Shown here piece by piece: positions 8,584 to 63,194 of a stretch of DNA of 64,000 bases. The notes under the pieces were generated by a model, which was given only the letters and a program-made list of their open reading frames with translations, was not told the origin of the DNA and searched no databases. Every line of letters begins with the position of its first letter. Position 1 is the first letter of the stretch. This DNA comes from Verrucomicrobiota bacterium (GTDB taxonomy: Bacteria > Verrucomicrobiota > Verrucomicrobiia > Limisphaerales > UBA11358). The position numbers and the translations under genes were made by a program. The stretch covers positions 128,666 to 192,665 of the forward strand of contig JBEKKZ010000006.1 in NCBI GenBank assembly GCA_050010435.1, in the 5' to 3' direction.

Positions 8584-8634
8584 TCAAATCTCCACCACCT
8601 GTTTGTATTCCGGCACGATGACTTTAGCTTCATT
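8584..8634 (-). repeat. relic copy of the 3' end of the MBL/beta-CASP gene
   Basis: 8586-8625 is identical over 40/40 nt to 9279-9318. The relic still encodes ...KVIVPEYKQVVEI followed by a stop. Confidence 0.85.
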
Positions 8635-8655
8635 GCGCGTTGTGGTGGCGCAAAA

Positions 8656-8976
8656 TCATTCCAACATTTGCGGAACATCCTGCGCGCCATGGAGGACGCG
8701 GATAATTTGCAGGCGGCGCGGCTTGCCCGTCACGCGGTAGAAAATCAGATAATTCGTGAAGCGGCGCACAGGCCAGAAGCGCATCCCGGAAAGCTCGGCG
8801 CGGTTGGATTGGTAACGCGGGCTAACTTCCGGCCATTGCGCCAGCGTGCGAAAGCTCAAAAGCAATGCGTCCAGAAAACGCCCGGCCGCAGCGGGGTTCT
8901 TCATCGCGATGAACAGGTGAATGTCCGCCACGTCCCGGATCGTTTCTTCCGAGCGGATGATTTTAAGCGGCTTCAA
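8656..8976 (-). CDS. parE: RelE/ParE-family type II toxin
   Basis: ...IIRSEETIRDVADIHLFIAMKNPAAAGRFLDALLLSFRTLAQWPEVSP...FTNYLIFYRVTGKPRRLQIIRVLHGAQD. A TTG start at 8976 is inferred (in frame, overlapping the antitoxin stop). The annotated upstream part of ORF 8656..9162 looks non-coding. Confidence 0.7.
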   Translation of the reverse strand: MKPLKIIRSEETIRDVADIHLFIAMKNPAAAGRFLDALLLSFRTLAQWPEVSPRYQSNRAELSGMRFWPVRRFTNYLIFYRVTGKPRRLQIIRVLHGAQDVPQMLE

Positions 8977-9226
8977 GTTCCTTGAGCTTGCGGCGGGTGC
9001 GGGAGCGGATGCGGTCGAAATCGGCATCGGCCAGCGGCCTGGCCGGACTGCGAACTCCGGCCAGAAGCTTGCGATCCAAATCGGGAATGTCCAGGGCGGC
9101 CGCCTGCTCGGCTTTTTCCAAGGCGCGCAAGCCCGCCCGCACGACTTCGCTGGAGTTGCCATAACGCCCGCCCTCGATCAAGTCGGCAACGAAGTCTTCG
9201 TAGTATTTGCTCAACGCAACATTCAT
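8963..9226 (-). CDS. parD: ParD-family (ribbon-helix-helix) antitoxin
   Basis: MNVALSKYYEDFVADLIEGGRYGNSSEVVRAGLRALEKAEQ... matches the ParD-type GRYxSxSEVVRxxLRxLE pattern. It lies directly upstream of the toxin and overlaps it. Confidence 0.75.
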   Translation of the reverse strand: MNVALSKYYEDFVADLIEGGRYGNSSEVVRAGLRALEKAEQAAALDIPDLDRKLLAGVRSPARPLADADFDRIRSRTRRKLKELEAA

Positions 9227-9276
9227 GGTCTAACTTTAGACTGATAACATTAGTTGTCAATAGACGTTATCACCAC

Positions 9277-10671
9277 TTAAATCTCCACCACCTGTTTGTA
9301 TTCCGGCACGATGACTTTGGCTTTTGGCTTCATTTGACGCAAGGTTTCGGCGTGGGCGAGACATTGCGATTCTTCGCCGTGAATGCAGACGATTTTTTTG
9401 ATGTCGCCGGAGATTCTTTCCACGTATTGCTTCAATTCGCCTTTGTCCGCGTGGCCGGAGTAGGTGTCGAGTGAAACAATTTTCGCGCGCACTTCCTGCG
9501 GTTCGCCAAAAATGTTCACCGGGTTCTTGCCGGCCACGATTTGCGCGCCCAACGTATTTTCCGCACAGAAGCCGATGAATAAAATCAAGTTCTTCGGATC
9601 GCCGATGTGGTTTTTCAGGTGATGCCGGATTCGCCCGGCTTCGCACATGCCCGACGCGCTGATGATAACGGCGGGTTCCTTCAGGTCATTGAGTATCTTC
9701 GATTGGTCGGCTTCGCGGATATAGGTCAGGTTCGACATGCCGAAGGGATTCGCCTTTTCGTGCAGGAACCGGTTGATGCTGTCGTTGAAACATTCCGGGT
9801 GCAGGCGGTAAATCTCCGTGGCGTTCACGCTCAACGGGCTGTCCACAAAAATCGGCACGCGCGGTAATTTGCCCGCGAGCGTGAGCTGGTTCAGCACGTA
9901 AACAATCTGCTGCGTGCGCCCGACCGAAAACGCCGGGATGATGACCTTGCCTTTTTGATTCAAGGTTTCCAGCACGAGCCGGCCAACGGTCTGGTCGGCG
10001 TCGGTGCGCACGTCATGTTCGCGTCCGCCGTAGGTGGATTCAATCTGCAGATAATCCACGTTTTCGGCCGGTTGCGGGTCGCGGAGAATTTCATCGTTGC
10101 CGCGGCCCACGTCGCCACTAAACAGGTAACGGAATTTTCGATTGCCTTCGCGCACGTCCAAAATGACCTGCGCCGCGCCCAGAATGTGTCCGGCGTCGCG
10201 AAACGTGACGGTGACGCCGTCCACAACCAGAAACGGGCGTTCGTAGCTGACGGCGACGAATTGATGCAACGTTTTCTCCGCGTCGGCGATGGTGTAAAGC
10301 GGTTCGACCGGCGGGAGTTTTTTCTTCGCCCGCTGCTTGGAGACGAACACGGCGTCGTCCATCTGGATGTGCGCGGAATCCACGAGCATGATGCTGCAAA
10401 GGTCGCGCGTGGCGAAGGTGCAATGGATGTTGCCGGTGTAGCCCTGCTTGACGAGGTTCGGCAGGTTGCCCGCATGGTCCATGTGCGCGTGGCTCAAGAC
10501 GACGGCGTCAATCTGCTTCGGGTCGAACGGAAAGCAGCAGTTGCGCTGGATGGATTCCTCGCGGTGGCCCTGAAAGAGGCCGCATTCGAGCAACAGCCGC
10601 TTGCCGTTGATCTCGAACAGGTACATCGAGCCGGTGGTGGTGCGCGCCGCGCCGAGGAAGTGGATTTGCAT
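9277..10671 (-). CDS. MBL-fold metallo-hydrolase with beta-CASP/RNA-specificity domain (CPSF73/RNase J-like)
   Basis: MQIHFLGAARTTTGSMYL...VLSHAHMDHAGNLP (HxHxDH), 464 aa, with a C-terminal beta-CASP-type region. Confidence 0.85.
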   Translation of the reverse strand: MQIHFLGAARTTTGSMYLFEINGKRLLLECGLFQGHREESIQRNCCFPFDPKQIDAVVLSHAHMDHAGNLPNLVKQGYTGNIHCTFATRDLCSIMLVDSAHIQMDDAVFVSKQRAKKKLPPVEPLYTIADAEKTLHQFVAVSYERPFLVVDGVTVTFRDAGHILGAAQVILDVREGNRKFRYLFSGDVGRGNDEILRDPQPAENVDYLQIESTYGGREHDVRTDADQTVGRLVLETLNQKGKVIIPAFSVGRTQQIVYVLNQLTLAGKLPRVPIFVDSPLSVNATEIYRLHPECFNDSINRFLHEKANPFGMSNLTYIREADQSKILNDLKEPAVIISASGMCEAGRIRHHLKNHIGDPKNLILFIGFCAENTLGAQIVAGKNPVNIFGEPQEVRAKIVSLDTYSGHADKGELKQYVERISGDIKKIVCIHGEESQCLAHAETLRQMKPKAKVIVPEYKQVVEI

Positions 10672-11348: not shown

Positions 11349-11353
11349 TTGCC

Positions 11354-23452: not shown

Positions 23453-23495
23453 ACATTCGGCTTGCAACTCCAATTGCCCATCGCATGATTTTATC

Positions 23496-24071
23496 GTGCA
23501 ACGACAGTCGTTGACCATTGCGCTGTTGCTGCCGCTGCTGACCAGCGGATGCGTGACCGATGCGCTTTGGAATAAAACCCAGTTGGATGACTGGAACGAA
23601 CCTGCAAACGACGCCAACGTGCACCTGTTTGAAGCCTTCCAGCAAAAAGATTTTCTGGTTGTTTATGACGAATACTCGGAACGCCATGACTCAATCCATA
23701 CTCGCGCGTATTTCCTGAATCAAAATCAAAAAGGTGTTGCCCAAGGGCAAAAACCCCATTTTGTCAACGCTCGTTTGTCACACAAATTGCCGCCGGTGCC
23801 GATATTCCAAACCTTGCCCGAATCCGACACGAATTTTTCGCAAATAATTTACGCCGTCATCTCGACAAACAGACAATCCTTCACAATTTATTCCGGCAAA
23901 GAAAAAACAGATTACAGCTTGGCTGTGTATAATGACGGTCGAGGTCAAATAGACCGGATTGCATTAACACCAGTTGCCGTGACGGCTGATCTCACCATAG
24001 TTGGCGGTTTTTTAGGCTGTTGGTTCATCTACGGACTGGCGGAATCGGGATATTCGGTAACCGTTCACTAA
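23496..24071 (+). CDS. lipoprotein, function unknown
   Basis: An in-frame GTG at 23496 gives (M)QRQSLTIALLLPLLTSGC, a lipobox. The upstream part of ORF 23283..24071 overlaps leuC and is unlikely to be coding. Confidence 0.55.
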   Translation: MQRQSLTIALLLPLLTSGCVTDALWNKTQLDDWNEPANDANVHLFEAFQQKDFLVVYDEYSERHDSIHTRAYFLNQNQKGVAQGQKPHFVNARLSHKLPPVPIFQTLPESDTNFSQIIYAVISTNRQSFTIYSGKEKTDYSLAVYNDGRGQIDRIALTPVAVTADLTIVGGFLGCWFIYGLAESGYSVTVH

Positions 24072-24159
24072 AGGAGGTTTTTCTTCGCCAGCTTTGCGCC
24101 GGGCAGATAAATCGTGAACGTCGTGCCTTCACCCATGCCCGCGCAGGCGCGTCAGCCAG

Positions 24160-24900
24160 TCAATGCCGACTGAACCCTTCCAGTTCCGCGATGAAAGCAT
24201 CCGGGCCGCCCTTCGCATAACCGACCTGCCGGCCAAGTTCCTTGCCCGCGAAATTCAACAGCACAAAGGTGGGAAAACCGTTCACGCCGAATCGTTTCTT
24301 AATCTCCTGATTGGCCTGTTTAAGCGCGGCGTCCTGCTTTATGTGGCTGGGAAAATCCAGCGTCACCAGCACGAGCTTGCTTTTGGCGTAGCCGGCGAAT
24401 TTGTCCGTGGACAGCACGTCCTTATCAAATTTCTTGCACCAGCCACACCAGTCGGAGCCGGTGAAGTCGAGCAGCACCATCTTGTTTTCCGACCGCGCCT
24501 GATTCAAGGCCGCTGACAAGGCGGTATCCCGTGACAATTCTGAAGCCTGTCCCGCAGATGACGGCTGCGTTGCACTTTCATCAGCCGGGGGTCGCGGCGC
24601 CGGCTGGTTGATGGCTTGAATGTGGTATTGGGCGTTGGCCGCGGCTTGCTTTTGTTCCGCCTCGCTCGCCTTCGTCGGATTGTAACCGAAATGCTTTTGC
24701 AGCGCGGGATCGAGCTTGCTCAGTTTCACATTGGCCATTCCCCTGGCGTAGGTGAAGTAGATGTCCGTGGCCGTGACCGTGGTAACCGTCACGTTGCTGT
24801 AAACCTCGCTGCCGGCGTTGAGTACCGGCAACTTTTCATTCGCCCGCGCGACCCAAACCGCAACGATCAGACTGAACGCGATGAAACCTTGGGCGCGCAT
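24160..24900 (-). CDS. secreted thioredoxin-fold protein
   Basis: Signal peptide MRAQGFIAFSLIVAVWVARA. The thioredoxin-like motif is DFTGSDWCGWCKKF (CxxC). Confidence 0.75.
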   Translation of the reverse strand: MRAQGFIAFSLIVAVWVARANEKLPVLNAGSEVYSNVTVTTVTATDIYFTYARGMANVKLSKLDPALQKHFGYNPTKASEAEQKQAAANAQYHIQAINQPAPRPPADESATQPSSAGQASELSRDTALSAALNQARSENKMVLLDFTGSDWCGWCKKFDKDVLSTDKFAGYAKSKLVLVTLDFPSHIKQDAALKQANQEIKKRFGVNGFPTFVLLNFAGKELGRQVGYAKGGPDAFIAELEGFSRH

Positions 24901-24910: not shown

Positions 24911-26200
24911 TTACTTCGCCAGATTCGCGCCGGGCAGATAAATCGTGAACGTCGTCCCTTCGCCCGGCCGCGTGTGAACGTGTAATGCGCCTTTCCCTTC
25001 CTTGATGAGCCGCTGCACGATGTTGAGACCGAGGCCGGTTCCCTGTCGCGGGCCTTTGGTGGTGAAGTAAGGCTGGAAAATTTTCGGCAGCACTTCCTCC
25101 GGGATGCCGGGCCCGGTGTCGCGCACCCACAACTTCACCAGCGGGGCGGTATTGTCCATGCCCTCGACGTTCAGCAGCCGGTCGTTTGGCCCGTCCTTGA
25201 ATTTGGTCAAATCGAGCGGCTCGCGCAAAATTTCACCGCCGACCTCGACGCGATGACTCATCGGCGCGCATTGAAAGGCGTTGACGGCGAGGTTCAGCAA
25301 AATCTGGATGACGTCGGTGCCGTTCATTTTGACGCCAAGGTCTTCGGCCATCGGCTGAACGCTGAATTCGTTGTCAACCCGGCCGGGATGAACGCGGATG
25401 AGTTGTTCGAGGTCTTTGAACAATTGATTCACGCTCACGCGCGGGGCTTCTTCCGATTGACGGCGGAGAAAACCGAGGTAGCGCCGGGAAATTTCCACGC
25501 AATTCCCCACCTGCCGCGCGATGATGCGCAGGCGGTCCTTGATGAATTCCAGGTCCTCCATTTCCAGCCGTGAATTGCGATTGAGGCGCTGGTTGAGCAC
25601 CTGCACGAAACCGGAAATGACCGTCAGCGGGCCGTTGATGTCGTGGATGATGCTGGCGTAAATGTCGCCGCGCGTTTTGGCAATTTGCTCCTCAACCTTC
25701 TGGTTTTGCAGTTCGGAAAGCAATTCCTGCACTTTTTCGGCGCTGCTGTGAATTTCACTTTCGAGCGTGCGCCGTTGCATCGCCTGGCTGACGGCGGCGC
25801 GGATGGTGGCCAGGTCGAACGGCTTGTTGATGTAATCGCACGCGCGCAGCCGCAACGCCTGACGAATCGTATCCGTCGTTTCAAACGCCGTCATCATGAT
25901 CACCTCGATGTTTGGGTTCACGTATTTGAGGCGTTCCAAAACTTCGATGCCCGACATGCCGGCCATGCGAATGTCCAGCACCGCCACGTCAATGGGATGC
26001 TTCTGCGCCAGCTCAATCGCCGTTGGCCCGTCCTCGGCCATCAGTATATCGTATTCGTCCTTGAAAATGACCCGCAGCGACTGCCGCGGCCCGTCCTCAT
26101 CGTCCACAACCAACAACGTGCCGCGGCGTTTGCGAAACGTCGTGCTGTCGCCCTCAACGGGATTGCTCTTGGCAATCAATGGTTCGGTGGTCAAAGCCAT
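24911..26200 (-). CDS. hybrid receiver-histidine kinase (REC-HisKA-HATPase)
   Basis: LLVVDDEDGPRQSL...VLDIRMAGMSG is the receiver. IHDINGPLTVISGF is the H-box. DTGPGIP...GTGLGLNIV are the G-boxes. Confidence 0.8.
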   Translation of the reverse strand: MALTTEPLIAKSNPVEGDSTTFRKRRGTLLVVDDEDGPRQSLRVIFKDEYDILMAEDGPTAIELAQKHPIDVAVLDIRMAGMSGIEVLERLKYVNPNIEVIMMTAFETTDTIRQALRLRACDYINKPFDLATIRAAVSQAMQRRTLESEIHSSAEKVQELLSELQNQKVEEQIAKTRGDIYASIIHDINGPLTVISGFVQVLNQRLNRNSRLEMEDLEFIKDRLRIIARQVGNCVEISRRYLGFLRRQSEEAPRVSVNQLFKDLEQLIRVHPGRVDNEFSVQPMAEDLGVKMNGTDVIQILLNLAVNAFQCAPMSHRVEVGGEILREPLDLTKFKDGPNDRLLNVEGMDNTAPLVKLWVRDTGPGIPEEVLPKIFQPYFTTKGPRQGTGLGLNIVQRLIKEGKGALHVHTRPGEGTTFTIYLPGANLAK

Positions 26201-27587: not shown

Positions 27588-27661
27588 CCGCCCCAGTTTC
27601 GGGTGAGTTCAGGCCGCTGGCAAGTCCGCGCCGCGCTTCACTATTGTTTGGGCGGTTTGGG

Positions 27662-28498
27662 TTAGTGGACTTCGGCGGTGAAAGTCCCGACGACATAACT
27701 CTTTTGATCGTCCGGCGTGCAGAGATAAATTTTCCCCGGCAACTGGCCCCCGGCAGGTTGTCCGAACTCGATTCGCAGCGCGTATCCCCCCTTTACCGAT
27801 TCCGTCATGGGCTGGCCTTGTGCGTCCTTCCATCGCAGATTGACCATCGGCGCGTTTGTAGCATTGATCTTGATAACCACTGACTTCCCGAAGAGGTTCT
27901 CATTCCGCTTCTCCCGAAGATAAATGGTGATGCCGGCTTCCGGCGGATTATCCGCCGTGCGTATCGTTAACCCGTCTGCATTCAAAACCATCCGCTGTGG
28001 AATCAAAACTTTTCCGTGAATATACCCCACCGCCGGCGAATCCGGAATCGTCATCGTGTCCAGGTTCAACGTCCAATTCGTATCGTTGGCAGGCCGTTCA
28101 GCGACGACCGGCCCGGGCGGCACTGGCGTAGCTGTTCGTTTCTCGTCCGACGCGGTTGCGGTCTGGTTGGTTTGCCCGCTGGTGGATTTGAAGATTTTTC
28201 CACGGAACACGAACGCTGCCGCAACCGCTGCGCAGAGCAAAACCGCAAAGACGAACACCGCTACCGGAAAAGGCTTCTCGGGCGCGGTTGCCGCTCCCGA
28301 ATCCGCCTCCGCAGTCGGAATGGGACGCTCACCGACTTGTGTTCCTGCAATGATAAATTTCGGGTCGTCCGTTTCGGGCGCTTGCGGTGCGGTGATTTTC
28401 TGGAAGCACGTCGGGCATTCCATCGTTGTGCCGCTCTGCGATGAGTCGCATAGGATGTGCTGGCCGCAAACCGGACACGCATATTTAAATTCGCTCAT
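27662..28498 (-). CDS. zinc-ribbon / single-TM / periplasmic-domain protein, tandem paralogue 1
   Basis: MSEFKYACPVCGQHILCDSSQSGTTMECPTCFQKITAPQAP... (CPxC...CPxC), a TM helix FPVAVFVFAVLLCAAVAAAFVF, a Pro-rich linker, and a C-terminal domain shared with paralogue 2. Confidence 0.6.
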   Translation of the reverse strand: MSEFKYACPVCGQHILCDSSQSGTTMECPTCFQKITAPQAPETDDPKFIIAGTQVGERPIPTAEADSGAATAPEKPFPVAVFVFAVLLCAAVAAAFVFRGKIFKSTSGQTNQTATASDEKRTATPVPPGPVVAERPANDTNWTLNLDTMTIPDSPAVGYIHGKVLIPQRMVLNADGLTIRTADNPPEAGITIYLREKRNENLFGKSVVIKINATNAPMVNLRWKDAQGQPMTESVKGGYALRIEFGQPAGGQLPGKIYLCTPDDQKSYVVGTFTAEVH

Positions 28499-28613
28499 GG
28501 CGGGGGGTGATCTGTGTTTTGCCTGACTTTAATATCCCATTTTCAAAACCGGACTGCAATCCGGTATTTTCATTTATAGTGCCAGGCGGGACGGGACTCC
28601 AAACAACCACACT
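28499..28613 (-). repeat. conserved leader/intergenic unit upstream of paralogue 1
   Basis: Near-identical to 29466-29580 and 30583-30690. It contains the hairpin ACCGGACTGCAATCCGGT (28548-28565). Confidence 0.7.
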
Positions 28614-29465
28614 TTACTTTTGTTTGGCCGTTTTGGGTTTGCGGATTTCGGCATCGAAGTTCCCGGCGATGTAACTTTTCTCGGCGTCCGGTGTGCATAG
28701 ATAAACTTTCCCCGGCATACGATTGCCGGCAAGTTGGCCAAATTCGATCCGCAGCGCGTAGCCGTTCGTGAAATTTTCCCGCAGGGACAGGTTGCCCTCC
28801 TTCCAACGCAATATGACATGCGCTGCCTTTTCTGCGTTGGTGGCGACATTGATGGACTGTCCGGCAAGCGCTTCGGTCAACACGCCACCGAAATTGATTA
28901 TCGCGCCCAAATCCGTTGCGCCGCGCAACGTCAGTGTGCCCCCCTGCAAAATCGCGCGGTCGCAAATAAAGTCCCGTCCGTGGATGCGCCCCGCCACCGT
29001 CGAATCAGGAATCGTCACTGCCGCGAGTTCCAACATCCAACTCGCATCATTTGCCGGCGGCGCGACGACGACGGGTTTGGGCGGTGGCGGCGGCCTGACG
29101 GGCTTTTGCGATGGGGAGGGCCCTGGCGCGCCTTGCCCGCCGCTGGACTTGAAGATCCTTCCATGGAACGCAAACAGCGCTACCGCCGCAGCGCAGAGCA
29201 AGACGATGAAGACAATGGCCGGCAGGGAAGAATTTTCCTGCGGCGCGGGTGTGGGCGCCGCTTCCGAATCCGCCACCGCGGTCGGAATGGGACGTTCGCC
29301 CACTTTCGTGCCTTTTATGATGAATTTCGGGTCGTCCGTCGCGGGGGCTTGCGGGGCGGTGATTTTCTGGAAGCAGGTCGGGCATTCCATCACCGTGCCA
29401 GCCTGCGACGAGTCGCACTTCATGTGCTGGCCGCACACCGGACATGCATATTTGAATTCGCTCAT
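28614..29465 (-). CDS. zinc-ribbon / single-TM / periplasmic-domain protein, tandem paralogue 2
   Basis: MSEFKYACPVCGQHMKCDSSQAGTVMECPTCFQKITAPQAP..., with the same architecture and C-terminal domain type as paralogue 1. Confidence 0.6.
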   Translation of the reverse strand: MSEFKYACPVCGQHMKCDSSQAGTVMECPTCFQKITAPQAPATDDPKFIIKGTKVGERPIPTAVADSEAAPTPAPQENSSLPAIVFIVLLCAAAVALFAFHGRIFKSSGGQGAPGPSPSQKPVRPPPPPKPVVVAPPANDASWMLELAAVTIPDSTVAGRIHGRDFICDRAILQGGTLTLRGATDLGAIINFGGVLTEALAGQSINVATNAEKAAHVILRWKEGNLSLRENFTNGYALRIEFGQLAGNRMPGKVYLCTPDAEKSYIAGNFDAEIRKPKTAKQK

Positions 29466-30582: not shown

Positions 30583-30690
30583 GGCGCGGGTGATCTGTGT
30601 TTTGCCTAGCTTTAACATCCCATTTTCAAAACCGGACTGCAATCCGGCATTTTCATTTGTGGCGGCGCTCGGTGATCGCCGTTCTAGTTT
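30583..30690 (-). repeat. conserved leader unit upstream of paralogue 3
   Basis: Third copy of the leader, with the hairpin ACCGGACTGCAATCCGGC at 30631-30648. Confidence 0.65.
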
Positions 30691-30792
30691 CATCGGCCAA
30701 ATGATTCTGCGATGGTCATGAACCGCCACGGCAAACTCATTTGAGAGTGACTTTTGGCACCGTCGGGCGCACATTCGAGACCGTTGAAGCGC

Positions 30793-32193
30793 ATGAAAAA
30801 AATCTCTCCCGTTTCCCGTAGCGGACGCTTCGCGCGCGGCCCCGGCGCGGACGTGACACAATTCACCGAATCCGTTTCTTTTGACTGGCGGCTGTGGCAG
30901 CATGACATCCTCGGCTCGCTCGCCCACGCCGCCATGCTCCGCAAAATCGGCGTGCTCTCCAAAATAGAGGAAGTCGCCATCATCCGCGGACTCGACAAGA
31001 TCGGACGCGAAATCGCCACGGGCAAATTCAAGTGGAAACCCGAACTCGAAGACGTGCACATGAACATCGAGGCCTCCTTGACGAGGCGTGTTCCGGCGGG
31101 CGCCAAACTGCACACCGCCCGCTCGCGCAATGACCAAGTCGCGCTCGACATGCGCCTCTGGCTGCGCGACGAAATTGTTTTGCTGCTCGGCGAAATTGCC
31201 GGTTTGCAACGCGCGCTGGTCAGCCTCGGCGAAAAGAATTCCGCCGTGTTGATTCCGGGCTACACCCATTTGCAACGCGCGCAGCCCGTTTATCTCGCGC
31301 ATTATCTGCTCGCCTACGTCGAGATGCTCGAACGCGACTGCGAACGGCTTTGGGACTGCCACTCGCGCGTGAACGTCTGCCCGCTCGGCAGCGGCGCGAT
31401 TGCCGGCTCCACGCTGCCGCTTGACCGTGTGTTTGTCGCCAAACTCCTCGGCTTCGTGGATGCGAACGGCAAACCGCAGCTCACGCAAAATTCCATGGAC
31501 GCCGTCGGCGACCGCGATTTTGCCGTCGAATTTTGCGCCGCCGCCGCGCTGCTCGCCGTTCACATTTCGCGGCTGGCTGAGGATTTGATTCTTTGGACGA
31601 GCGCGGAATTCAATTTCATCAAAATCGCCGACGCCTACACCACCGGCTCGTCGCTCATGCCGCAAAAGAAAAACCCCGACATCGCCGAGCTTGCGCGCGG
31701 CAAATCCGGCCGCGTCATCGGCAACCTCGTCGCGCTGCTCACGCTGCTCAAGGGCCTGCCCATGACCTACAACCGCGATTTGCAGGAGGACAAGGAACGG
31801 GTGTTTGACACCGCCGACACCGTGCGTGCCACCACACGCCTCATGGCCGCGATGCTGAAGAACACAAAAGTAAATCGCGCCACCTGTACTGCCGCCGCAA
31901 GCGACCCGGCGCTGCTGGCGACGGATTTGGCCGATTATTTGGTGAAAAAGGGAATGCCATTCCGGCAGGCGCATCACGCGGTTGGCGCCGTCGTGGCACT
32001 GGCGGAAATATTGGACAAGCCGCTGAACCAGCTTTCGCTTGTGGAACTGCAATCCGTGGACAAAAAGTTCGGTCGCGATGCACTGGGCGTATTCGATTTG
32101 CAGCGCGCGATGGCTAAACGAAATCTGACCGGCGCGCCGGGAACGAAGGAAGTCGCGAAGCAACTGGCGCGCTGGCGGGAACAGCTTTCGTAA
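30793..32193 (+). CDS. argH: argininosuccinate lyase
   Basis: SGRFARGPG...GYTHLQRAQPV...GSSLMPQKKNPD is the fumarate-lyase signature. ATG 30793 is preferred over 30754. Confidence 0.9.
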   Translation: MKKISPVSRSGRFARGPGADVTQFTESVSFDWRLWQHDILGSLAHAAMLRKIGVLSKIEEVAIIRGLDKIGREIATGKFKWKPELEDVHMNIEASLTRRVPAGAKLHTARSRNDQVALDMRLWLRDEIVLLLGEIAGLQRALVSLGEKNSAVLIPGYTHLQRAQPVYLAHYLLAYVEMLERDCERLWDCHSRVNVCPLGSGAIAGSTLPLDRVFVAKLLGFVDANGKPQLTQNSMDAVGDRDFAVEFCAAAALLAVHISRLAEDLILWTSAEFNFIKIADAYTTGSSLMPQKKNPDIAELARGKSGRVIGNLVALLTLLKGLPMTYNRDLQEDKERVFDTADTVRATTRLMAAMLKNTKVNRATCTAAASDPALLATDLADYLVKKGMPFRQAHHAVGAVVALAEILDKPLNQLSLVELQSVDKKFGRDALGVFDLQRAMAKRNLTGAPGTKEVAKQLARWREQLS

Positions 32194-32202
32194 GCACCAG
32201 CA

Positions 32203-32679
32203 ATGGAAATCGTCTATCTCGAAACGACGTTTTTCAGTTTTTACCACGACGAACGGCCCGCACCAGCCATCGTGGCGATGCGAGATTGGACTCGGCAGTT
32301 TTGGACCGAGCGGCGCGAAGATTACGCCTTGGTCACAAGCGCGGCGGTTTTGGACGAATTGCGCAAAGGCGGCGCGCACCACAAAAAACCAGCGTTGGAT
32401 TTGGCTCTCACGTTGCCGTTGATTCCGGGCGGCCATGAAGTCGCAGAAATCGTTCAGGCCTACGTGAAGCACAAGCTGATGCCGGAAGACCCGGCAGGCG
32501 ACGCGCTGCATCTGGCATTGGCTTCGTTCCACGAATGCGACTATCTTGTGACGTGGAATTGCCGGCATTTGGCGAACGCCAACAAGTTCGGCCACATCCG
32601 GCGGATCAACGCCATGCTGGGATTGAAGACGCCGGAAGTGGTGACGCCGCCGGAATTGCTGGGAGAAATTGAAACATGA
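32203..32679 (+). CDS. PIN-domain protein (VapC-like toxin)
   Basis: MEIVYLETTFF...GDALHLALASFHECDYLVTWNCRHLAN...TPPELL follows the PIN acidic-residue pattern. It also carries the WNxxHxxN C-terminal block seen in one VapC-like subfamily. Confidence 0.7.
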   Translation: MEIVYLETTFFSFYHDERPAPAIVAMRDWTRQFWTERREDYALVTSAAVLDELRKGGAHHKKPALDLALTLPLIPGGHEVAEIVQAYVKHKLMPEDPAGDALHLALASFHECDYLVTWNCRHLANANKFGHIRRINAMLGLKTPEVVTPPELLGEIET

Positions 32680-32909
32680 ACGCAGCGGACAAAGCCATTG
32701 AGGAAATCCGGGCGGTGCGGCACCGCATCTCCACGGAGCATGGGCATGACATCACGAAATATCTCGTCAGCCTGCGCGCGGAGGAAAAACAGCATCCGGC
32801 GCAACTCAAGCGCGGCAAGGAATTACTGGCCCGGCGGCTCGCGGAACGCAAAAAGTATCCGGCGCTGGCCGGCAATGCGCTGGTGCTGCGCGAACGTCCC
32901 AAAAAGTGA
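32676..32909 (+). CDS. small partner protein of the PIN gene (putative antitoxin)
   Basis: 77 aa. Its start overlaps the PIN stop (ATGA). It is charged and helical: MNAADKAIEEIRAVRHRISTEHGHD... Confidence 0.5.
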   Translation: MNAADKAIEEIRAVRHRISTEHGHDITKYLVSLRAEEKQHPAQLKRGKELLARRLAERKKYPALAGNALVLRERPKK

Positions 32910-32937
32910 AATCTGGATGAACTTTCGAAATGCTTTT

Positions 32938-33036
32938 GGATTGCAACGCACAATGGCGAAGCGAAACCTGACCAGCGCTCCGGGAACCAAGGAAGTCGCG
33001 AAACAACTGGCGCGGCGGCGGGAACAGCTTTCGTGA
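32938..33036 (+). pseudogene. relic second copy of the argH 3' end
   Basis: 80 of 93 aligned nt are identical to 32101-32193 in my hand alignment. It encodes ...LQRTMAKRNLTSAPGTKEVAKQLARRREQLS*, against argH ...LQRAMAKRNLTGAPGTKEVAKQLARWREQLS*. Confidence 0.85.
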
Positions 33037-33054
33037 AGCGCAAAAACGCTTTGC

Positions 33055-34485
33055 ATGATTACCGAAGAACAAATCAGGCAAACCGTTTCAAAGGCTGAAG
33101 AATTACTTCAGGATTGCTGGGCAAAACTTTCCGACATGAAGAATGCGGAAAATTTCTTTTCGTTCCAACCCACATTACTAACTGCCCTCTATCAAATCGA
33201 GTCGGCCTACCGAACAATCTGCAAAGAAGAACGTGAACTGATTTCACAAAAATTATCATCCAATAAAAACCAGTTCGCGGAGCGGATGAAAACATTGGCT
33301 CGCTACAAAAGTGTATTGACCCAAGTTTTGGACATTGGCAAAGCGTTAGGTGATTCGTTCGCGTGGATTTTTTACGGAAATGAAAAAGAACTCTTAAAAA
33401 AACACTATGACCACGAGTTTATTCCTCACCTTGCACTTGGAATCGGAGGGCGCGGTGAATATGAATTTGCCAAGAACGCTCCCCGGTTTGGAAAATACAT
33501 TGTGTTAGCGCACTCAATCACAACATTTCTTCGTCTCGGAGATGTCAGCTTAATAGATCCGATTGACTTAAAAGTTGTGGCTATTGGCGAACTTAAATCA
33601 CAGAAAAAATCCGACACCAAAATTTCTGTCAACATTACCTTCATCGGAGCAAAGTTGCCGAAGGAAATGCTTCCCAAGGTTTCGGAAGTGCAAGGCGAGC
33701 CTATCAAGAAAATTTCAGAACAACTTCCGCCGGCGCTTTTGACCCGCCTCAAGAAACAAGTCAAAGGCATGCAAGAAGCATTTAAACCACCACTTCAAAA
33801 CCATCCGCCCAATAAAATTGAAATGCATTTGGTTGAAATGAAGCTCAAAGAACTTTTTGACCGTTCGTCACTGGGCAAATGGGGAAGCATCAAAGTTGAC
33901 CGTGGATTATTGTTGGTCGGCATGAGGTTTGAAGAAATGCCTCTTTATTTACACTTAAAAGGAGTGCCGTTAGAAACAGGAGGAAACTTCCAACAAAACA
34001 TGGAGAAGTTGAAAGTTGCAACAGCAGAAATTCTTGATAAGAGCTTGTCCCAAAATTTTATTTTAACGTCTTGGATTCTCTATCCAGCAAATGGCAGATA
34101 CTTTCATCCATTCGGCATGATGCCTCTGTTCTTTTGGCCTTTGGATACCGCAGTGCGCAAAGCAATAATTTTTCGACAAATGCGAGTTATGACTTTATAC
34201 AATCCCGGTTTTTTAATCGATGAACTGAATCGAAATGGGTTTGAGGTTCAATTTGGGAAAGACAGGGATTTAAAAATTGTGAAGCATATTGGCGAGAAGC
34301 GCATGGAATTTTCAGGAATGGGCTATTTTATTGGAGCAGTTAGAACTCAATTTTTATCTGATGCTGGTATCGTAAATTTGGCTCGGATGGCAGTTGAAAA
34401 AATTGAAGCGGAAAATTTCAAGCAACCAACTAATATCAGTTTGGATTTTGATTTCCTTTATAATCAGATTGTTGATTCTGTCTAA
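33055..34485 (+). CDS. AT-rich orphan protein, 476 aa, with a PD-(D/E)xK-like motif; function unknown
   Basis: A long uninterrupted ORF in a region where two counted lines give 43% and 45% G+C. The motif LRLGDVSLIDPIDLKVVAIGELKSQKK lies at 33532-33609 (D at 33541, E-x-K at 33589-33597). I recognise no family. Confidence 0.6.
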   Translation: MITEEQIRQTVSKAEELLQDCWAKLSDMKNAENFFSFQPTLLTALYQIESAYRTICKEERELISQKLSSNKNQFAERMKTLARYKSVLTQVLDIGKALGDSFAWIFYGNEKELLKKHYDHEFIPHLALGIGGRGEYEFAKNAPRFGKYIVLAHSITTFLRLGDVSLIDPIDLKVVAIGELKSQKKSDTKISVNITFIGAKLPKEMLPKVSEVQGEPIKKISEQLPPALLTRLKKQVKGMQEAFKPPLQNHPPNKIEMHLVEMKLKELFDRSSLGKWGSIKVDRGLLLVGMRFEEMPLYLHLKGVPLETGGNFQQNMEKLKVATAEILDKSLSQNFILTSWILYPANGRYFHPFGMMPLFFWPLDTAVRKAIIFRQMRVMTLYNPGFLIDELNRNGFEVQFGKDRDLKIVKHIGEKRMEFSGMGYFIGAVRTQFLSDAGIVNLARMAVEKIEAENFKQPTNISLDFDFLYNQIVDSV

Positions 34486-34487: not shown

Positions 34488-35513
34488 ATGCCGATCGTGT
34501 TAAATGATTTACTCAAAGTGACGTCGCGCTCGTTTTATCTGACGTTGCGTGTGCTGCCGGGCGCCATCCGCCTGCAGATCGGCCTGGCGTACCTGCTCGC
34601 GCGCACCACCGACACCATCACCGATACTGAACTTGTCCCGGTGGAGCAACGGCTGGATGCGCTCAAAAGGTTGCGCGAGCGCATCCAGGGTTCGTCCACC
34701 GCGCCGCTGAATTTCGGTGAACTGGCGAAACATCAAGGCTCGTCCGCCGAAGCTGCCTTGCTGGAAAAGGTCGAGGACAGCCTCACGCTGCTGCAAACCC
34801 TTTCGCCCGCTGACCAGCAACTGGCCCGCACCGTCCTCAACACCATCACGGGCGGACAGGAACTGGACCTGCGCCGGTTCGCCGGCGCGTCCGCCGAAAA
34901 AATTGTCGCGCTTGAAACCACCGCCGAACTGGACAACTACACCTACCACGTCGCCGGCTGCGTCGGCGAATTCTGGACGAAAATGTGCCGGGCGCATCTG
35001 TTTCCAAAGCCGCAGTTGGACGACGCGCAACTGCTGGCGGACGGCGTCCGGTTTGGCAAGGGACTGCAACTGGTGAACATCCTGCGTGATTTGCCCGCCG
35101 ATTTGAAAAAGGGCCGCTGCTATCTGCCCTCGGACAAACTGGAAAAGGCGGGATTAATACCCGAGGTTTTGTTGTCACCGGCAAACGAGGTGAAATTCCG
35201 TCCGCTGTTTCACGAATATCTCGACCGCGCCGAATCGCACCTGGCCGCGGGCTGGGCTTACACGAACACGTTGCCGTTTGGCCAGGTCCGCGTGCGGCTG
35301 GCCTGCGCGTGGCCGATTTTGATTGGCGTGAAAACGATTGAGAGACTGCGCGCCGGCAACGTGCTTGACCTGCAGCAGGGTGTCAAAATTTCCCGGGCCG
35401 AAGTGCGCGGGATTTTGCTGCGTTCGACACTGGCTTACCCGCTGCCGGAGGTGTGGCGACAATTGTTTTTTACGACTGGGAAAGCTGTTGCATCCGAAGG
35501 TAAATTGGCGTAG
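34488..35513 (+). CDS. squalene/phytoene synthase family enzyme
   Basis: VTSRSFYLTLRVLP...LLARTTDTITD...VNILRDLPADLKKGRCYLP are the two Asp-rich regions of the family. Confidence 0.8.
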   Translation: MPIVLNDLLKVTSRSFYLTLRVLPGAIRLQIGLAYLLARTTDTITDTELVPVEQRLDALKRLRERIQGSSTAPLNFGELAKHQGSSAEAALLEKVEDSLTLLQTLSPADQQLARTVLNTITGGQELDLRRFAGASAEKIVALETTAELDNYTYHVAGCVGEFWTKMCRAHLFPKPQLDDAQLLADGVRFGKGLQLVNILRDLPADLKKGRCYLPSDKLEKAGLIPEVLLSPANEVKFRPLFHEYLDRAESHLAAGWAYTNTLPFGQVRVRLACAWPILIGVKTIERLRAGNVLDLQQGVKISRAEVRGILLRSTLAYPLPEVWRQLFFTTGKAVASEGKLA

Positions 35514-42173: not shown

Positions 42174-44435
<2,262 letters not shown>

Positions 44436-44572
44436 GCAACTCATCAAGATAATAAGCGGGTATAACCCGGGCAAAAGGATAAACATTGAACCGCCAACGT
44501 CGAACTTCCAATGCTGATGCCATTGGGTGCATCCGGGCATCACCACCAAGACACGAGGCCGCCCCGACTGTG

Positions 44573-46455: not shown

Positions 46456-46524
46456 GCAGCGCGGGCGTCTCGCCTGCATGGCACAGTGAAGGCATCAACC
46501 GGGCAGGCGAGACGCCTGCGCTAC
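46456..46524. repeat. 22-nt-arm inverted repeat of the GTAGCGCAGGCGTC family
   Basis: GCAGCGCGGGCGTCTCGCCTGC (46456-46477) pairs with GCAGGCGAGACGCCTGCGCTAC (46503-46524). It lies between thiL and tsaE. Confidence 0.75.
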
Positions 46525-46531
46525 ATTATTC

Positions 46532-59540: not shown

Positions 59541-59960
59541 TTACTCCCCGATGATTTTCACCAGCACGCGCTTGCGGCGGCGACCGTCGAATTCACCGTA
59601 GAAAATCTGCTCCCACGGGCCGAAGTCGAGCTTGCCTTTCGTGATGGCCACGACCACTTCGCGACCCATGATTTGCCGCTTCATGTGAGCGTCCGCGTTG
59701 TCCTCGCCGGTGCGGTTATGCTGGTATTGCGACGTCGGCTCGTGCGGCGCGAGTTTCTCGAGCCACACATCGTAATCATGCAGCAAACCGTCTTCAGCGT
59801 CGTTTATGAACACCGACGCCGTTATATGCATGGCATTCACCAAACAGAGGCCCTCTTTGACCCCACTTTTTTTGACCAATTCCTCAACCGTACCGGTGAT
59901 GTTAACGAATCCCCGGCGATTCGGGACTTCAAACCAAAGATGCTCAGTCAAATATTTCAT
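59541..59960 (-). CDS. yjbQ: YjbQ-family (UPF0047) secondary thiamine-phosphate synthase-like protein
   Basis: [63 protein letters not shown]...[16 protein letters not shown]... Confidence 0.85.
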
Positions 59961-60012
59961 CCTGTTTTGTATGTCAGGATCACGCTAATTCGGCAAGCTG
60001 AACCCTGTTTGA

Positions 60013-60144
60013 TTTTTTCAGTGGCCTAAATTGGGAACGAGGCCGGACCAAACCTACAAAGCAATTTTGGCCAACGGAACCTTCAGCTTCACCGACACGA
60101 CCGCAACCAATAAAAACGGCTTTTATCGGACGGTGAAACAATAA
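60013..60144 (+). pseudogene. start-less C-terminal fragment of a secreted-protein tail domain
   Basis: The open frame after the in-frame TGA (60010-60012) reads ...QTYKAILANGTFSFTDTTATNKNGFYRTVKQ*. That is the same ...FYR(V/L) tail type as the proteins ending at 56790 and 60196. It has no start codon. Confidence 0.4.
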
Positions 60145-60195
60145 GCCTTTGACCCGACACCTGCAACCAAACGTGTTCCGACAGACGCATACGAT

Positions 60196-62571
60196 TTATT
60201 GCAGCCGGAAGAAGGCGGCGGGCGGGTTGTTGGTGAACGTGAAGGCAACCGCCGGCACGCCGTTGGTGGCCGGCACCCAAGGCCCGGTAGTCAGATTGGT
60301 CGTCATCTGCAACATGAAATTCGTCCCCGCCGAGGCCGGCCACAGGATAATCACCTGCCCGCCTCCAAGGCCAACTGTCAGTGGCGGATAAGTATTGGTG
60401 CTGATGATGGTGAGCGAAAGCGACTGTTCGTTTGTGGCGGGCAGAAGGTCCGTTGCCTGCACAGTGAAATTGAACAAGCCGCTGGTCGTCAGCGTGCCGG
60501 AAAGCACGCCGTTGGTGGCCAGTGTCAGATTGGCCGGCAGGCTGGTGGAACCGGATGCGAGCGACCAACTGTAAGGCGATGCGCCGCCAAAGGGCACGCC
60601 GGCGGTGGCCTGCAACTGCTGGCTGTAAGCGGAACCGTTTGTGCCATTGGGCAAGGAGGTTGTAATGATCTGCACGGCGTTGCTGACGCCGATGGAAAAC
60701 TGGCGGTTGGTGGTCAAACTGCCGCTGTCTGTTACCTGCACAGTAAAAGTGTAGGTGCCGCTCGCGCCGTTGGTACCGTAAATCTCGCCGTTGCTGCCGA
60801 GGGTCAAACCGGACGGCAAGGAACCGCCGATCTGGATCCAGTTGTAGGCACCGATATTGCAACTGGACGCCTGCAGGGACTGGTCATAATCCACGCCGAC
60901 TTCGCCGGGGGGCAAGGACGTGGTGGTGATGGAAATGCCGCCGCAGGGGTAGACGATGAAATTGTTGGTGGCATTATTGTTGTTAATGATTGCCGTCTGG
61001 TTGTTCGGACAGGCGTAATTGCCGCTGCCAAGAATGTCGTCCAAACTGTCGTTGCCGCCAGTGCAATTGACGCTGTTGGTCCAAGCGCCGTTGGCCACGT
61101 TCAACGAGTAATTGCCATTAGTATCGGTGTCCGTATAGGTCTGATAATATGTACCGTTGATGTTGGCATAGGCGTACACGCCGACGCCGACGATGTTCGT
61201 GCCGTTAGCCTTTACGTTGCCGGTGATATAATTCGTCGCGAGGATGGCGGTGAAATTCGCCAGCACGGCCTGGCCGGCATTGATATTGGTGCCTCCATTT
61301 TGATCAAGTGCCGATTGTGAAAAAACATAATTGGTGAGCTGATTGTTGTCGTTGGCCTGCACATACCAGGAATCACTGGCGCCCACGCCCAGCACGCCCA
61401 GGACATAATTTCCGTTCGCATCCGTATAACCGTCCGTTTCATACAGGCCGCTACCGGCGTGGTCGTCGGCATAAACGTCCAATCCCACGAAGGGATTCCC
61501 CAGGTTGTCTTTGACGCTGCCATAAATCAACGCCGTGGCCTTGGGGACGGTTAGTATCACCCCTGTCGTGCCAGCGGTGACATTGGTTTTGTTTTGCAAC
61601 CCCAGGTAGCCATGAACAATCAACACCGTGTCGTTCGCCTTGATTTTCCACGTGCCGGCGGTGACCCGCACGTTGAAATTGCCATTGGTGTCGGTGAAAG
61701 CGATTGCAAGCAGGTTGTTGGTGGACGTCGCCGAAAAGAACACTCCGGGCAATCCGATGGCCTGGTTGTTGGTGTCCAACAGTTTCCCCGAAATGCTCTG
61801 CGTGGCGTTGGTGAGCGTCAGATTGGTGGTGATGGTCTGGCTGGCGGCCAACGTGAGCACCGGCCACGTGTAATTGGCAACATAATTACTTCTAAAAGCC
61901 ACCGGCACATACGTTCCCGCCGGCACCTGAACAGTGTAGCTGCCCGCATTGTTCGCCACCACGCCGGCCAGTGGACTGCCTCCCGGCCCGCTGTGTCCCG
62001 GACTCGGGGGAGGAAACAACAGGACAAGGGCATTGGACAACGTGGTGCTGGTGCTGTTGCTGACTACGTTGCCGGTGAACTTTTGTGCGTAGGGAAAATT
62101 GGTGACGCTGAAACTGTTGGTGATCGGCGTAAAATGCCCAACGGGGCTGGACAGCTTAAACAAATATTTCCCGATGATGTTCTGCACGAAATCCCCGTTT
62201 TGAAAATTCAACGTCGCAGTGATGGCACCCGTCGTGGCATTCAAATCGCCGGGCACATTGAAATTGGTCACCCCGCCAATCACAAAGTTTGTCCCATCCT
62301 GCAAAGTGAACTGCTGCACCAGCCAGTCGTTGCCATCAATGACGCCGTTGGTGTTGAGGTCGAGGAATTTCTGGATGACCACCATCTCCGTGTTCGTCAA
62401 CCCGCCGATTTGCAGGGTGATGGTTCCGGCGTAGGTGTTGCTGACGGCAGTGGGCGTGACGGTAAACGTGACGGCGGCGAAAGCACCCTGGCCAAAGGCA
62501 GCCAGCCATGCGAATGCCACGAAGAGGCGGATGAGGAAAGTTTTCATGGATTTGATTGTGTCAGGTTTCAA
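60196..62571 (-). CDS. large secreted adhesin-like protein (carboxypeptidase-regulatory-like and putative Ig repeats)
   Basis: Signal peptide MKTFLIRLFVAFAWLAAFGQGAFA. Repeats include ITTTSLPPGEVGVDYDQSLQAS...LPSGLTLGSNGEIYGT and ITTSLPNGTNGSAYSQQLQAT...LPANLTLATNGVLSGT. The tail is ...PPAAFFRLQ. Confidence 0.7.
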   Translation of the reverse strand: MKPDTIKSMKTFLIRLFVAFAWLAAFGQGAFAAVTFTVTPTAVSNTYAGTITLQIGGLTNTEMVVIQKFLDLNTNGVIDGNDWLVQQFTLQDGTNFVIGGVTNFNVPGDLNATTGAITATLNFQNGDFVQNIIGKYLFKLSSPVGHFTPITNSFSVTNFPYAQKFTGNVVSNSTSTTLSNALVLLFPPPSPGHSGPGGSPLAGVVANNAGSYTVQVPAGTYVPVAFRSNYVANYTWPVLTLAASQTITTNLTLTNATQSISGKLLDTNNQAIGLPGVFFSATSTNNLLAIAFTDTNGNFNVRVTAGTWKIKANDTVLIVHGYLGLQNKTNVTAGTTGVILTVPKATALIYGSVKDNLGNPFVGLDVYADDHAGSGLYETDGYTDANGNYVLGVLGVGASDSWYVQANDNNQLTNYVFSQSALDQNGGTNINAGQAVLANFTAILATNYITGNVKANGTNIVGVGVYAYANINGTYYQTYTDTDTNGNYSLNVANGAWTNSVNCTGGNDSLDDILGSGNYACPNNQTAIINNNNATNNFIVYPCGGISITTTSLPPGEVGVDYDQSLQASSCNIGAYNWIQIGGSLPSGLTLGSNGEIYGTNGASGTYTFTVQVTDSGSLTTNRQFSIGVSNAVQIITTSLPNGTNGSAYSQQLQATAGVPFGGASPYSWSLASGSTSLPANLTLATNGVLSGTLTTSGLFNFTVQATDLLPATNEQSLSLTIISTNTYPPLTVGLGGGQVIILWPASAGTNFMLQMTTNLTTGPWVPATNGVPAVAFTFTNNPPAAFFRLQ

Positions 62572-62984
62572 TGATGCTATTGCTTCAACCAGAAAAACAG
62601 ATTCTCCACTGGCGGCATGATTGTGCTGCTATTCGTGCCGTGCCGACTTGTTGGCTTTAAACCTTTTACAGTTTTTTCGATTTGCTCACGATTTCAAAAT
62701 CCCGTCAATCCACCCTTTTTGTCCACCGGTAAGCCAATTAGGGTGATTTTAAACCAGACTCATTTCTAGCGGATTTTGAGGGGGTTTCACTCGCTGGGCG
62801 GTGGGGCAGCCCTTGCCCTTATCTGCGGCGACAAGCTGGGAACGGGGATCGGTGTATGCCGATTCCCGTTGAACGACGTGTGCAAAGCGGTTCATTTTCA
62901 CACCAAGTACAAGCTCAGACGGATACGAAAAACCGGGGACCCTTTCCCAACCTACCTCTCTTCAGGTTGCTCACCTTGCCAGGG

Positions 62985-63194
62985 GCAACTTTTCAAGCCA
63001 TATATCGTAGTCGTGCAGCAAGCCGTCTTCGGCATCATTTATGAACACCGACGCGTGATGTGCATGGCGTTGACGAGGCAAAGCCCTTCCTGCACGCCGC
63101 TCTTGCGGACGAGCTGTTCGACCGTGCCGGTGATGTTGACGTAATCGCGCCGATGCGGCGTTTCAAACCAGAGATGTTCGGTCAAACTTTTCAT
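62985..63194 (-). pseudogene. 5' fragment of a second yjbQ copy, frameshifted and truncated
   Basis: The minus strand from ATG (63192-63194) reads [48 protein letters not shown] 1-nt deletion near 63050 follows. Out of frame it still encodes ...[22 protein letters not shown], and similarity ends near 62985. Confidence 0.8.

Follow-up and report, generated by a model that had tools for sequence, protein, structure and literature searches.

This report concerns partial duplicates of gene ends that lie a short distance from the complete gene, separated from it by other genes, in a 64,000-nucleotide (nt) stretch of DNA from a Verrucomicrobiota bacterium (Limisphaerales, UBA11358; GenBank assembly GCA_050010435.1, contig JBEKKZ010000006.1, positions 128,666 to 192,665 of the forward strand). 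The whole stretch is referred to as the window, and coordinates are those of the window unless a contig is named. We call the complete gene the parent, its own terminus the working end or copy, the partial duplicate the relic, and the DNA between the two the insert, with the genes in it as cargo. An earlier note on this DNA had pointed to three such duplicates, at a metallo-beta-lactamase (MBL) gene, argH and yjbQ; all three are real and were found by self-BLAST of the window, which also found a fourth at a histidine kinase gene. Each of the window relics matches its neighbour gene alone across the whole 3.8-Mb genome.

The first parent encodes a beta-CASP/metallo-beta-lactamase ribonuclease-like protein (9277..10671, minus strand; Pfam Beta-Casp, RMMBL and Lactamase_B), and its final 45 nt are the working copy (9279-9323) of a repeat that is 97.8% identical to the relic at 8586-8630. 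Between the two lie, on the same strand, genes for a ParD antitoxin (8963..9226; Pfam ParD_antitoxin, 2e-9) and a ParE toxin (8656..8982; Pfam ParE_toxin, 2.5e-11). The relic (8586..8630, minus strand) is a displaced MBL-gene 3' end with its own stop codon, extended in the 5' direction to about 8660 by decayed sequence with small deletions; it is a mosaic, the 3' 45 nt being homogenised to the working end and the 5' part decayed. Beyond it, between the relic and a DUF520 (yajQ-like) gene, AT-rich orphan open reading frames (ORFs) occupy 8064..8572 on the plus strand (GC content 0.34-0.44 at 8000-8600) and gave no match in Pfam and NCBIfam searches. For comparison we used relatives of the same genus but of different species, at about 74-92% nucleotide identity, which are given here as G-numbers. 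The ParDE pair is missing from the MBL site of G011 and is present, with the same junctions, in G017 and G022. The window and G017 have ParDE in common, and the orthologous MBL relic of G017 is longer and begins directly after the ParE stop, while the gap beyond that relic is filled by DNA other than the orphans of the window. In G022 the order is MBL gene, a new 0.7-kb insert, the old MBL end and then ParDE, an arrangement that reads as clear sequential displacement.

At the second locus the parent is argH (30754..32193, plus strand; assigned from its ORF and translation), orthologues of which occur in 40 of the 41 genomes searched, its own genome counted. The final 96 nt of the gene are the working copy of a 99-nt repeat (32098-32195), which recurs at 86.9% identity as a displaced argH 3' end with its own stop (32941..33039, plus strand). 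The cargo consists of two plus-strand genes with a 4-nt overlap, the first encoding a 158-amino-acid (aa) protein that is PIN-like by motif only (32203..32679) and the second a 77-aa partner (32676..32909). Toxin–antitoxin (TA) pairs had been proposed as the cargo of both the MBL and argH loci, and this is borne out by Pfam for ParD and ParE, but the argH pair has no match in Pfam, NCBIfam or PDB and can be called TA-like only, judged solely by size, gene overlap and motifs. Its first protein showed no similarity by BLASTP to the PIN_3 proteins of the genome, and a single-sequence AlphaFold model of it gave an uninformative fold (pLDDT 37). An in-frame ATG at 32917, which is conserved in G017, would turn the relic into a 39-aa ORF (32917-33036).

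Downstream of the argH relic, an AT-rich gene for a 476-aa orphan (33055..34485, plus strand; GC 0.43 at 33-34 kb) separates it from the native downstream neighbour of argH, a squalene/phytoene synthase gene (34488..35513, plus strand; Pfam SQS_PSY). The orphan has no Pfam or NCBIfam family match, and is absent in the relatives except for a partial match in G011. That AT-rich orphans directly abut the MBL and argH relics, as had been noticed before, is correct, but they are insertions separate from the cargo, because relatives that share the relics carry other DNA at these positions. Four genomes of the same genus (G004, G013, G016 and G001) have an empty site, with argH followed directly by squalene/phytoene synthase, and most other species carry different inserts of 0.4-2.9 kb after argH. 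The locus of G017 lacks the gene for the PIN-like protein and keeps the partner gene and the relic, with a region of 88% identity straight after argH and a relic junction identical to that of the window; the argH relic of G023 is independent, starting elsewhere and with another junction. As a separate observation on the neighbouring gene, G017, G011 and G012 carry duplicates of the 5' end of squalene synthase, covering its initial 22-35 codons (loci L013, L020 and L025).

The third locus is the mirror image of these two. The parent, yjbQ (59541..59960, minus strand; Pfam UPF0047), carries the working copy (59755-59962) of a 208-nt repeat of 75% identity, and the relic (62990..63196, minus strand) is a displaced yjbQ 5' fragment comprising codons 1-70 with one frameshift. 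This fragment is found on the upstream side of the insert, and 15 nt separate it from the stop codon of the gene that natively precedes yjbQ, which belongs to the isocitrate/isopropylmalate dehydrogenase family and runs off the window (63210..64000, minus strand; Pfam Iso_dh). The cargo is a single gene for a 791-aa secreted Ig-domain protein (60196..62571, minus strand; Pfam He_PIG). The structure of host gene, insert and truncated gene end that was thought to be shared by all three loci is found in that form at the MBL gene and argH, and in mirror image at yjbQ, where the relic is a 5' fragment upstream of the insert. In G004 the dehydrogenase gene and yjbQ are adjacent, with the cargo absent between them, and the relic of the window aligns to the start of the intact yjbQ of that species, continuous with the dehydrogenase gene. 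The yjbQ site of G011 has a shorter relic of its own and a 6-kb insert.

Allele typing of yjbQ, by sliding identity and site patterns against five relatives, revealed that both copies are chimeric. Over its first 150 nt the relic is 84-87% identical to G017 and G011, which are the relatives nearest at argH and argG, and just 72% identical to the working copy, whereas the first ~170 nt of working yjbQ are of the allele type of G022 and G013 and the remainder is native-like. The relic switches from native to donor type at about nt 140 (1-140 native, 140-210 donor), and the working copy switches from donor to native-like type at about nt 170-190, within the 208-nt repeat.

The fourth duplicate has a different history. 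The final 57 nt of a hybrid response-regulator/histidine kinase gene (24911..26200, minus strand; Pfam Response_reg, HisKA and HATPase_c) recur at 91% identity at 24078..24134 on the same strand. Between the copies lies a thioredoxin-like gene (24160..24900, minus strand; Pfam Thioredoxin_7/2) that adjoins the kinase gene in G017, G011, G022 and G013 and is native, not cargo; in G004 its position is next to the aconitase gene and some 5 kb away from the kinase. A ~690-nt insertion, with the relic at its edge, occupies the gap between the thioredoxin-like gene and an aconitase-family gene and also holds a lipoprotein-like ORF (23484..24071, plus strand) with a lipobox-like signal, LLLPLLTSGC. 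This ORF has no Pfam match and is absent from the same gap in five relatives, and in G022, with the same kinase, thioredoxin-like and aconitase order, 17 nt alone separate the last two genes. Relic and lipoprotein-like ORF probably entered together, on a donor fragment that was anchored at the opposite side and whose far end the relic represents. In G017 the aconitase-family gene, too, has a 57-nt duplicate of its 3' end (L063, G017:C5, 3362-3418), about 600 nt from the gene.

The frequency of such structures was assessed over the genome as a whole, which is a 3.82-Mb metagenome-assembled draft in 35 contigs with ~3,150 called genes, by a whole-genome self-comparison combined with a home-made codon-usage gene caller. 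Close repeats at a spacing of 0.3-4 kb are overwhelmingly direct (317, versus 17 inverted). The 89 direct-repeat pairs that were tested have one copy within a gene 300 nt or longer and the second outside genes of that size; 32 of these end within 15 nt of the stop codon of the parent, where random placement expects 6.2, and not one of 200,000 simulations reached 32. The relic is downstream of the parent in 29 of the 32 pairs and upstream in three, and the 29 downstream pairs derive from 24 parent genes (about 0.8% of the gene set) with one to three relics each, this being the only genome scanned in this way. A genome-wide self-alignment for gene-end duplicates, as had been suggested, thereby confirmed the signature as a recurring one, and the same genes are affected in sister species.

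The downstream pairs are 34-272 nt long and 74-100% identical, with spacers of 0.4-6.9 kb, and in all 29 the similarity ends between -13 and +11 nt from the stop codon. Two repeat pairs are nearly identical (100%, for a 34-nt pair at C1:820 kb, and 97.8%). Relics may also stand in series, with three after an MBL-HTH gene on contig 1 (C1:866 kb), two after clpB and two after mnmE. For some 10 other genes it is the 5' end that is duplicated, on the upstream side, a count that is less certain because the called start codons are approximate. The fate of the relics is mixed, from the frameshift in yjbQ and the deletions at the MBL locus to a fadL-like relic in G011 that has been nearly erased by two microhomology deletions. 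One of the 24 parents sits in a repeat-rich cassette region of contig 7, where, at about 39-58 kb, many direct repeats of 40-270 nt are spaced 0.5-10 kb apart between small genes; the repeats of that region were otherwise treated separately from the tally of relics. Four of the 24 relic-bearing genes of the genome fall in this 64-kb window, which is 1.7% of the genome, and this may reflect either local clustering or the way in which the window was selected.

The differences between working ends and relics are informative as to their origin. Across 22 gapless pairs read in the frame of the parent there are 155 synonymous (Sd) and 78 non-synonymous (Nd) differences, giving proportions per site of 0.35 (pS) and 0.055 (pN) and a pN/pS of 0.16, and none of these pairs contains an in-frame stop. 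Of the 24 gapless relics analysed, about 16 can be read without interruption to a stop where the parent has its own. As the differences are mostly synonymous, the copies diverged mainly as parts of working genes in different lineages, not as local duplications, and the identity of a pair mainly measures the distance between donor and recipient. The differing identities of the three original loci had been taken as a sign of events of different ages, an interpretation that these data do not support.

Comparison with the relatives gives these events a direction. At seven of the eight loci examined, an insertion is evident by comparison with one or more relatives; the exception is the kinase locus. 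The relic is continuous with the native flank at three loci, namely yjbQ, clpB and a gene on contig 5: the second clpB relic and its flank align unbroken to the gene end and flank of G017, and the contig-5 relic and its flank do so to those of G013 and G022, all of them free of the insert. Relics that run into native flanks in this way, taken with the allele types of yjbQ, show that the relic is the resident end and that the working end arrived with the cargo. The same genes are used repeatedly: the argH, argG, clpB, mnmE, MBL and yjbQ ends carry different inserts and relics in other species, and those of argG, the MBL-HTH gene, clpB and mnmE carry relics in several. The comparison across the genus that had been proposed for timing the events thus supplied empty sites and recurrence, but timing itself is not possible at the level of species. 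In G011 the mnmE 3' end occurs twice at G011:C6:42882-43289, at 89-91% identity to the query and with 330 nt between the copies, about 290 kb from its own mnmE, so that relic-bearing cassettes may also land away from the parent gene.

The junction between the end of the cargo and the start of the relic is conserved at argG (the window genome, G022 and G017), argH (the window and G017) and the MBL gene (the window and G017), and beyond the argG relic the DNA is unrelated between species. The argG relics of the window genome and G022 differ by Sd 8 and Nd 1, while the cargo between is only about 80% identical, and the relics of the three species differ almost solely at synonymous sites. No argG cassette is present in G011, even though it is the nearest relative at argG. 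Two further observations concern this cassette. The argG relic (contig 13, 60200-60320) is readable as a ~39-aa ORF with its own ATG, which overlaps the stop of the preceding ORF6N gene as ATGA, and the module of argG, ORF6N gene and relic is common to at least five species of the genus.

The cargo is heterogeneous. A Pfam scan covered 54 called genes from 20 of the 24 inserts genome-wide, with the cargo genes of the window searched separately; two short inserts had no called gene. The TA matches were ParDE, a ParE-like protein, two PIN_3 proteins with partners, and a DUF2442 protein plus an HTH protein, and the others included two ORF6N proteins, two GH31 glycosidases, sensor kinases, response regulators, oxidoreductases, and TPR and PEP-CTERM proteins. 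Several inserts are just 0.4-1.2 kb in size, and the cargo has no common feature between loci. In two cases an ORF6N (KilA-N-like) gene opens the cargo, directly following the stop of core genes that are unrelated to each other (contig 1, 488600-489148, and contig 13, 59607-60203). Recombinase and transposase families were absent from the 54 cargo genes and from the scanned cargo of the window, a result obtained with Pfam and without a genome-wide search for serine recombinases. The earlier note had seen no integrase, transposase, tRNA or terminal inverted repeat, and this stands: a tRNA search of the window found none, no terminal inverted repeats were seen at its cassettes, and no tyrosine recombinase is encoded on its contig.

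Taken together, these observations lead us to a reading that we hold to be likely, at a probability of roughly 0.7, in which the partial duplicates are displaced gene termini, scars left when DNA from related genomes was imported, anchored by homology and independently of a recombinase, into the variable gaps that separate core genes. An incoming segment would bring its own copy of a core gene end together with the adjoining donor DNA as cargo, and host homologous recombination inside the core gene, presumably RecA-dependent, would install the imported end and the cargo. The resident end would be shunted past the cargo and would stay joined to its native flank as a relic, and repeated rounds would stack relics in series. 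Once formed, a relic would offer a second stretch of homology to the same gene. Two ordinary crossovers could then carry the cassette into a naive relative, the first within the body of the gene and the second where the relic of the donor pairs with the gene end of the recipient; alternatively, a circle could be excised between the repeats and integrate by a single crossover. Both routes would preserve the two internal junctions, restore the recipient's own sequence in the 3' part of the relic and be indifferent to the downstream DNA. Loss of a cassette by repeat-to-repeat recombination would be expected, and an illegitimate join with homology on one side only would be needed just once, when the cassette is created.

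Three features, the chimeric yjbQ copies, the conserved junctions with differing flanks and the synonymous-only divergence of shared relics, argue that crossovers have taken place inside the duplicated segment. If relics were neutral scars passed down since the species separated, much greater divergence would be expected, without regard to codon position, and the relic sequence has therefore probably been drawn repeatedly from working ends. Which enzymes act, how the DNA gets in, whether its intermediates are linear or circular and which way the transfers ran belong to the inferred part of this reading, whereas the repeats, their place at gene termini, their recurrence in the genome and the genus, the purifying selection, the empty sites, the relics that run into native flanks and the chimeric copies are observed.

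Several points weigh against this reading. Without the donor sequence no junction can be demonstrated to be illegitimate or homologous, and as the relatives are other species the events cannot be dated, no strain-level empty and filled alleles having been seen. The shortest repeats (34-45 nt) leave little room for RecA-type crossovers. The relic of the kinase locus came from the other flank, so a single scheme does not fit all cases, and the counts of relics are approximate because the gene caller was home-made. Furthermore, the similarity of the cargo between species is no higher than that of the flanking core genes, which fits old vertical inheritance better than recent spread; if inheritance is old, the synonymous-only divergence of shared relics requires either that working alleles have overwritten them again and again or that the relics are under selection.

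Integrase-mediated elements that target gene ends and supply a replacement end, like phage 21 and e14 in icd or the integrative and conjugative elements (ICE) and cis-mobilizable elements (CIME) at fda, would leave the same architecture of working end, insert and displaced native end at their attachment sites, with the integrase since lost or acting in trans, and the conserved cargo-relic junctions would also suit a fixed crossover site. Seven tyrosine recombinases (PF00589) are indeed encoded in the genome, and a 59-nt repeat pair on contig 3 encloses an integrase. This pair, however, is a separate, classical island, and the 24 inserts and the window contain none of the seven. Many specificities would be required for a set of at least 24 different targets, several inserts are as small as given above with cargo unrelated between loci, and the lengths and starts of the repeats vary even at one gene, as for argH in the window and in G023, with many repeats only 74-85% identical. 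We regard such an origin as unlikely, and there is equally no evidence pointing to a dedicated mechanism that targets gene ends, which had been offered as another option.

The main route put forward in the earlier note was homology-facilitated illegitimate recombination (HFIR), for example after natural transformation, and in its strict form, with one-step HFIR explaining everything and each locus an independent event followed by vertical inheritance, it has some points in its favour. A native relic results naturally if the illegitimate join falls in the gene upstream of its stop, the relics are continuous with native flanks, no recombinase is present, ComEC and DprA are encoded, and the pattern is indeed organised by homology to the adjacent core gene. 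But this scheme predicts a relic derived wholly from the recipient and an imported tract running past the repeat, whereas the yjbQ relic is chimeric and the working copy switches back inside the repeat. It also predicts a new junction for each event, yet junctions are shared by species with unrelated downstream DNA, and both this and the chimerism call for crossovers inside the repeat. Shared relics, moreover, diverge almost only synonymously, unlike a neutral vertical scar. Natural transformation cannot be deduced from the competence genes, because ComEC and DprA match most of the control genomes too, E. coli and other non-competent ones among them, and are therefore uninformative; a search of the genome for Ku found it absent. 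HFIR as a full explanation seems improbable to us, its part being confined in our preferred scheme to the creation of a cassette.

Local partial duplication or rearrangement of the host's own gene ends, followed by decay and with no import, would account for the relics that do decay (yjbQ, MBL and the fadL-like relic of G011) and for the two nearly identical repeats. Decay of a local copy cannot, however, produce a pN/pS of 0.16 at a pS of 0.35, and the inserts are absent in relatives and the working yjbQ end is of another allele type than the relic, which makes this origin very improbable. That strain variants were mis-joined in tandem during metagenome assembly is a natural worry with a 35-contig draft, but is scarcely credible given the same structures and orthologous junctions in independently assembled genomes, two of them with only 9-10 contigs, and copies that at 74-92% identity are well past strain variation.

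Some other candidates were considered and rejected. A diversity-generating retroelement is contradicted by the lack of a reverse transcriptase in the Pfam scans and by mismatches that are synonymous third-position changes of all types and not confined to adenines. Target-site duplication by a transposon does not suit repeats of 34-272 nt that are 74-100% identical and end at stop codons, and no transposase or terminal inverted repeats were seen. As regards integron cassettes, which end in an attC recombination site, the cassettes of the window showed no inverted repeats. As a general feature, relics do not appear to be expressed mini-ORFs, since in-frame starts are no commoner than those in other frames (24 gapless relics) and several relics are frameshifted, truncated or deleted in relatives.

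The window also contains repeats of other kinds. At 27600-30700 there are three tandem paralogous genes, 71-85% identical over 0.4-1 kb and with a highly conserved segment of ~85-130 nt at their 5' ends. Within the ORF at 35523-36944, 13 tandem 21-nt units are followed by 186-nt repeats (35700-36640), both of which encode a low-complexity stretch rich in Pro, Thr and Ala. Another ORF of 791 aa (42174-44549) contains palindromic 26-nt arms, 96% complementary, at 43111-43183, as well as a 27-nt element (42826-42852) with a reverse-complement partner at 46504-46530.

Many bacterial insertion hot spots have no recognisable mobile element, and how genes enter them is largely inferred. Displaced ends are direct sequence footprints of such entry, from which the anchoring flank, the native copy and related-species donors can be read, and as they are frequent in this genome and shared within a genus of uncultured Verrucomicrobiota, such events could be counted and polarised with them from genome sequences alone. 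A more far-reaching and decidedly tentative proposal, which we think possible but would not favour, is that the gene end, the cargo and the second copy of the gene end form a self-sufficient, integrase-free mobile unit. Its two copies would serve as homology arms, with which it could enter any relative that has the gene and leave as a circle, the relic being reset at each entry, and TA pairs would be favoured as cargo because they penalise loss by repeat-to-repeat deletion. If the duplicated end is such a portable homology arm, small TA and defence cassettes could spread without an enzyme of their own, and homologous recombination would be a general vehicle for small selfish or defence genes in lineages poor in classical mobile elements.

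There are parallels to several known systems. With phage 21 and e14 in icd of E. coli, and with ICE/CIME elements at the 3' ends of genes, the element brings a diverged working end and the native end becomes a pseudo-end on the far side. The loci described here likewise receive a working replacement end, with frame and stop kept and, in yjbQ, a 5' end of foreign type, but they differ from these islands in that no integrase was found within the inserts or close to them, the cargo is tiny and has nothing in common between loci, the repeat boundaries are variable and the targets are many. The minimal mobile elements of Neisseria and other integrase-free hot spots are cassettes exchanged via both flanking genes, without a duplicated gene end. 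Common to both is that different cassettes occupy the same core-gene gap across relatives and are exchanged by flanking homology, although in our case the far flank is often unshared and the relic itself can supply the second homology.

HFIR is outlined in two papers (PMC3240628 and PMC5361080, citing de Vries & Wackernagel 2002, Prudhomme et al. 2002 and Meier & Wackernagel 2003) as relying on a one-sided homologous anchor, and its laboratory products, as described there, usually combine an insertion with the loss of about the same amount of DNA and are joined at microhomology. The gain of foreign DNA via an anchor in a core gene, without mobile-element functions, is shared with the loci studied here, which differ in that their chimeric relics and conserved junctions require crossovers within the repeat. 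In E. coli, a single crossover of a circle has been reported to give duplications of 109-950 bp of the homologous end, while true HFIR gives deletions (PMC3240628).

The pattern as a whole is best read as the C-terminal displacement architecture known from the toxin loci of Rhs, contact-dependent inhibition (CDI) and type VI secretion systems (T6SS), here at ordinary genes, for which a limited full-text literature search found no description. For rhs, homologous recombination with circular intermediates has been proposed (Jackson et al. 2009, PMC2935791), and for the T6SS arrays of Vibrio, HFIR (Kirchberger et al. 2017, PMC5361080). As in those systems, a full gene is followed by cargo and then by one or more 3' fragments homologous to the gene (29 pairs, 24 genes), the displaced fragment is the former resident end on its native downstream DNA (yjbQ, the second clpB relic and the contig-5 gene), serial arrays arise by successive displacement (C1:866 kb, clpB, mnmE and the nested case in G022), and no dedicated recombinase takes part. 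In contrast to them, the parents are ordinary housekeeping or regulatory genes (argH, argG, clpB, mnmE, the ribonuclease-like MBL gene and yjbQ), the new and old ends are homologous to each other (74-100%) with no non-homologous toxin tip and cognate immunity gene, the cargo is an arbitrary collection of TA pairs, enzymes and sensors, and 5' ends are displaced as well.

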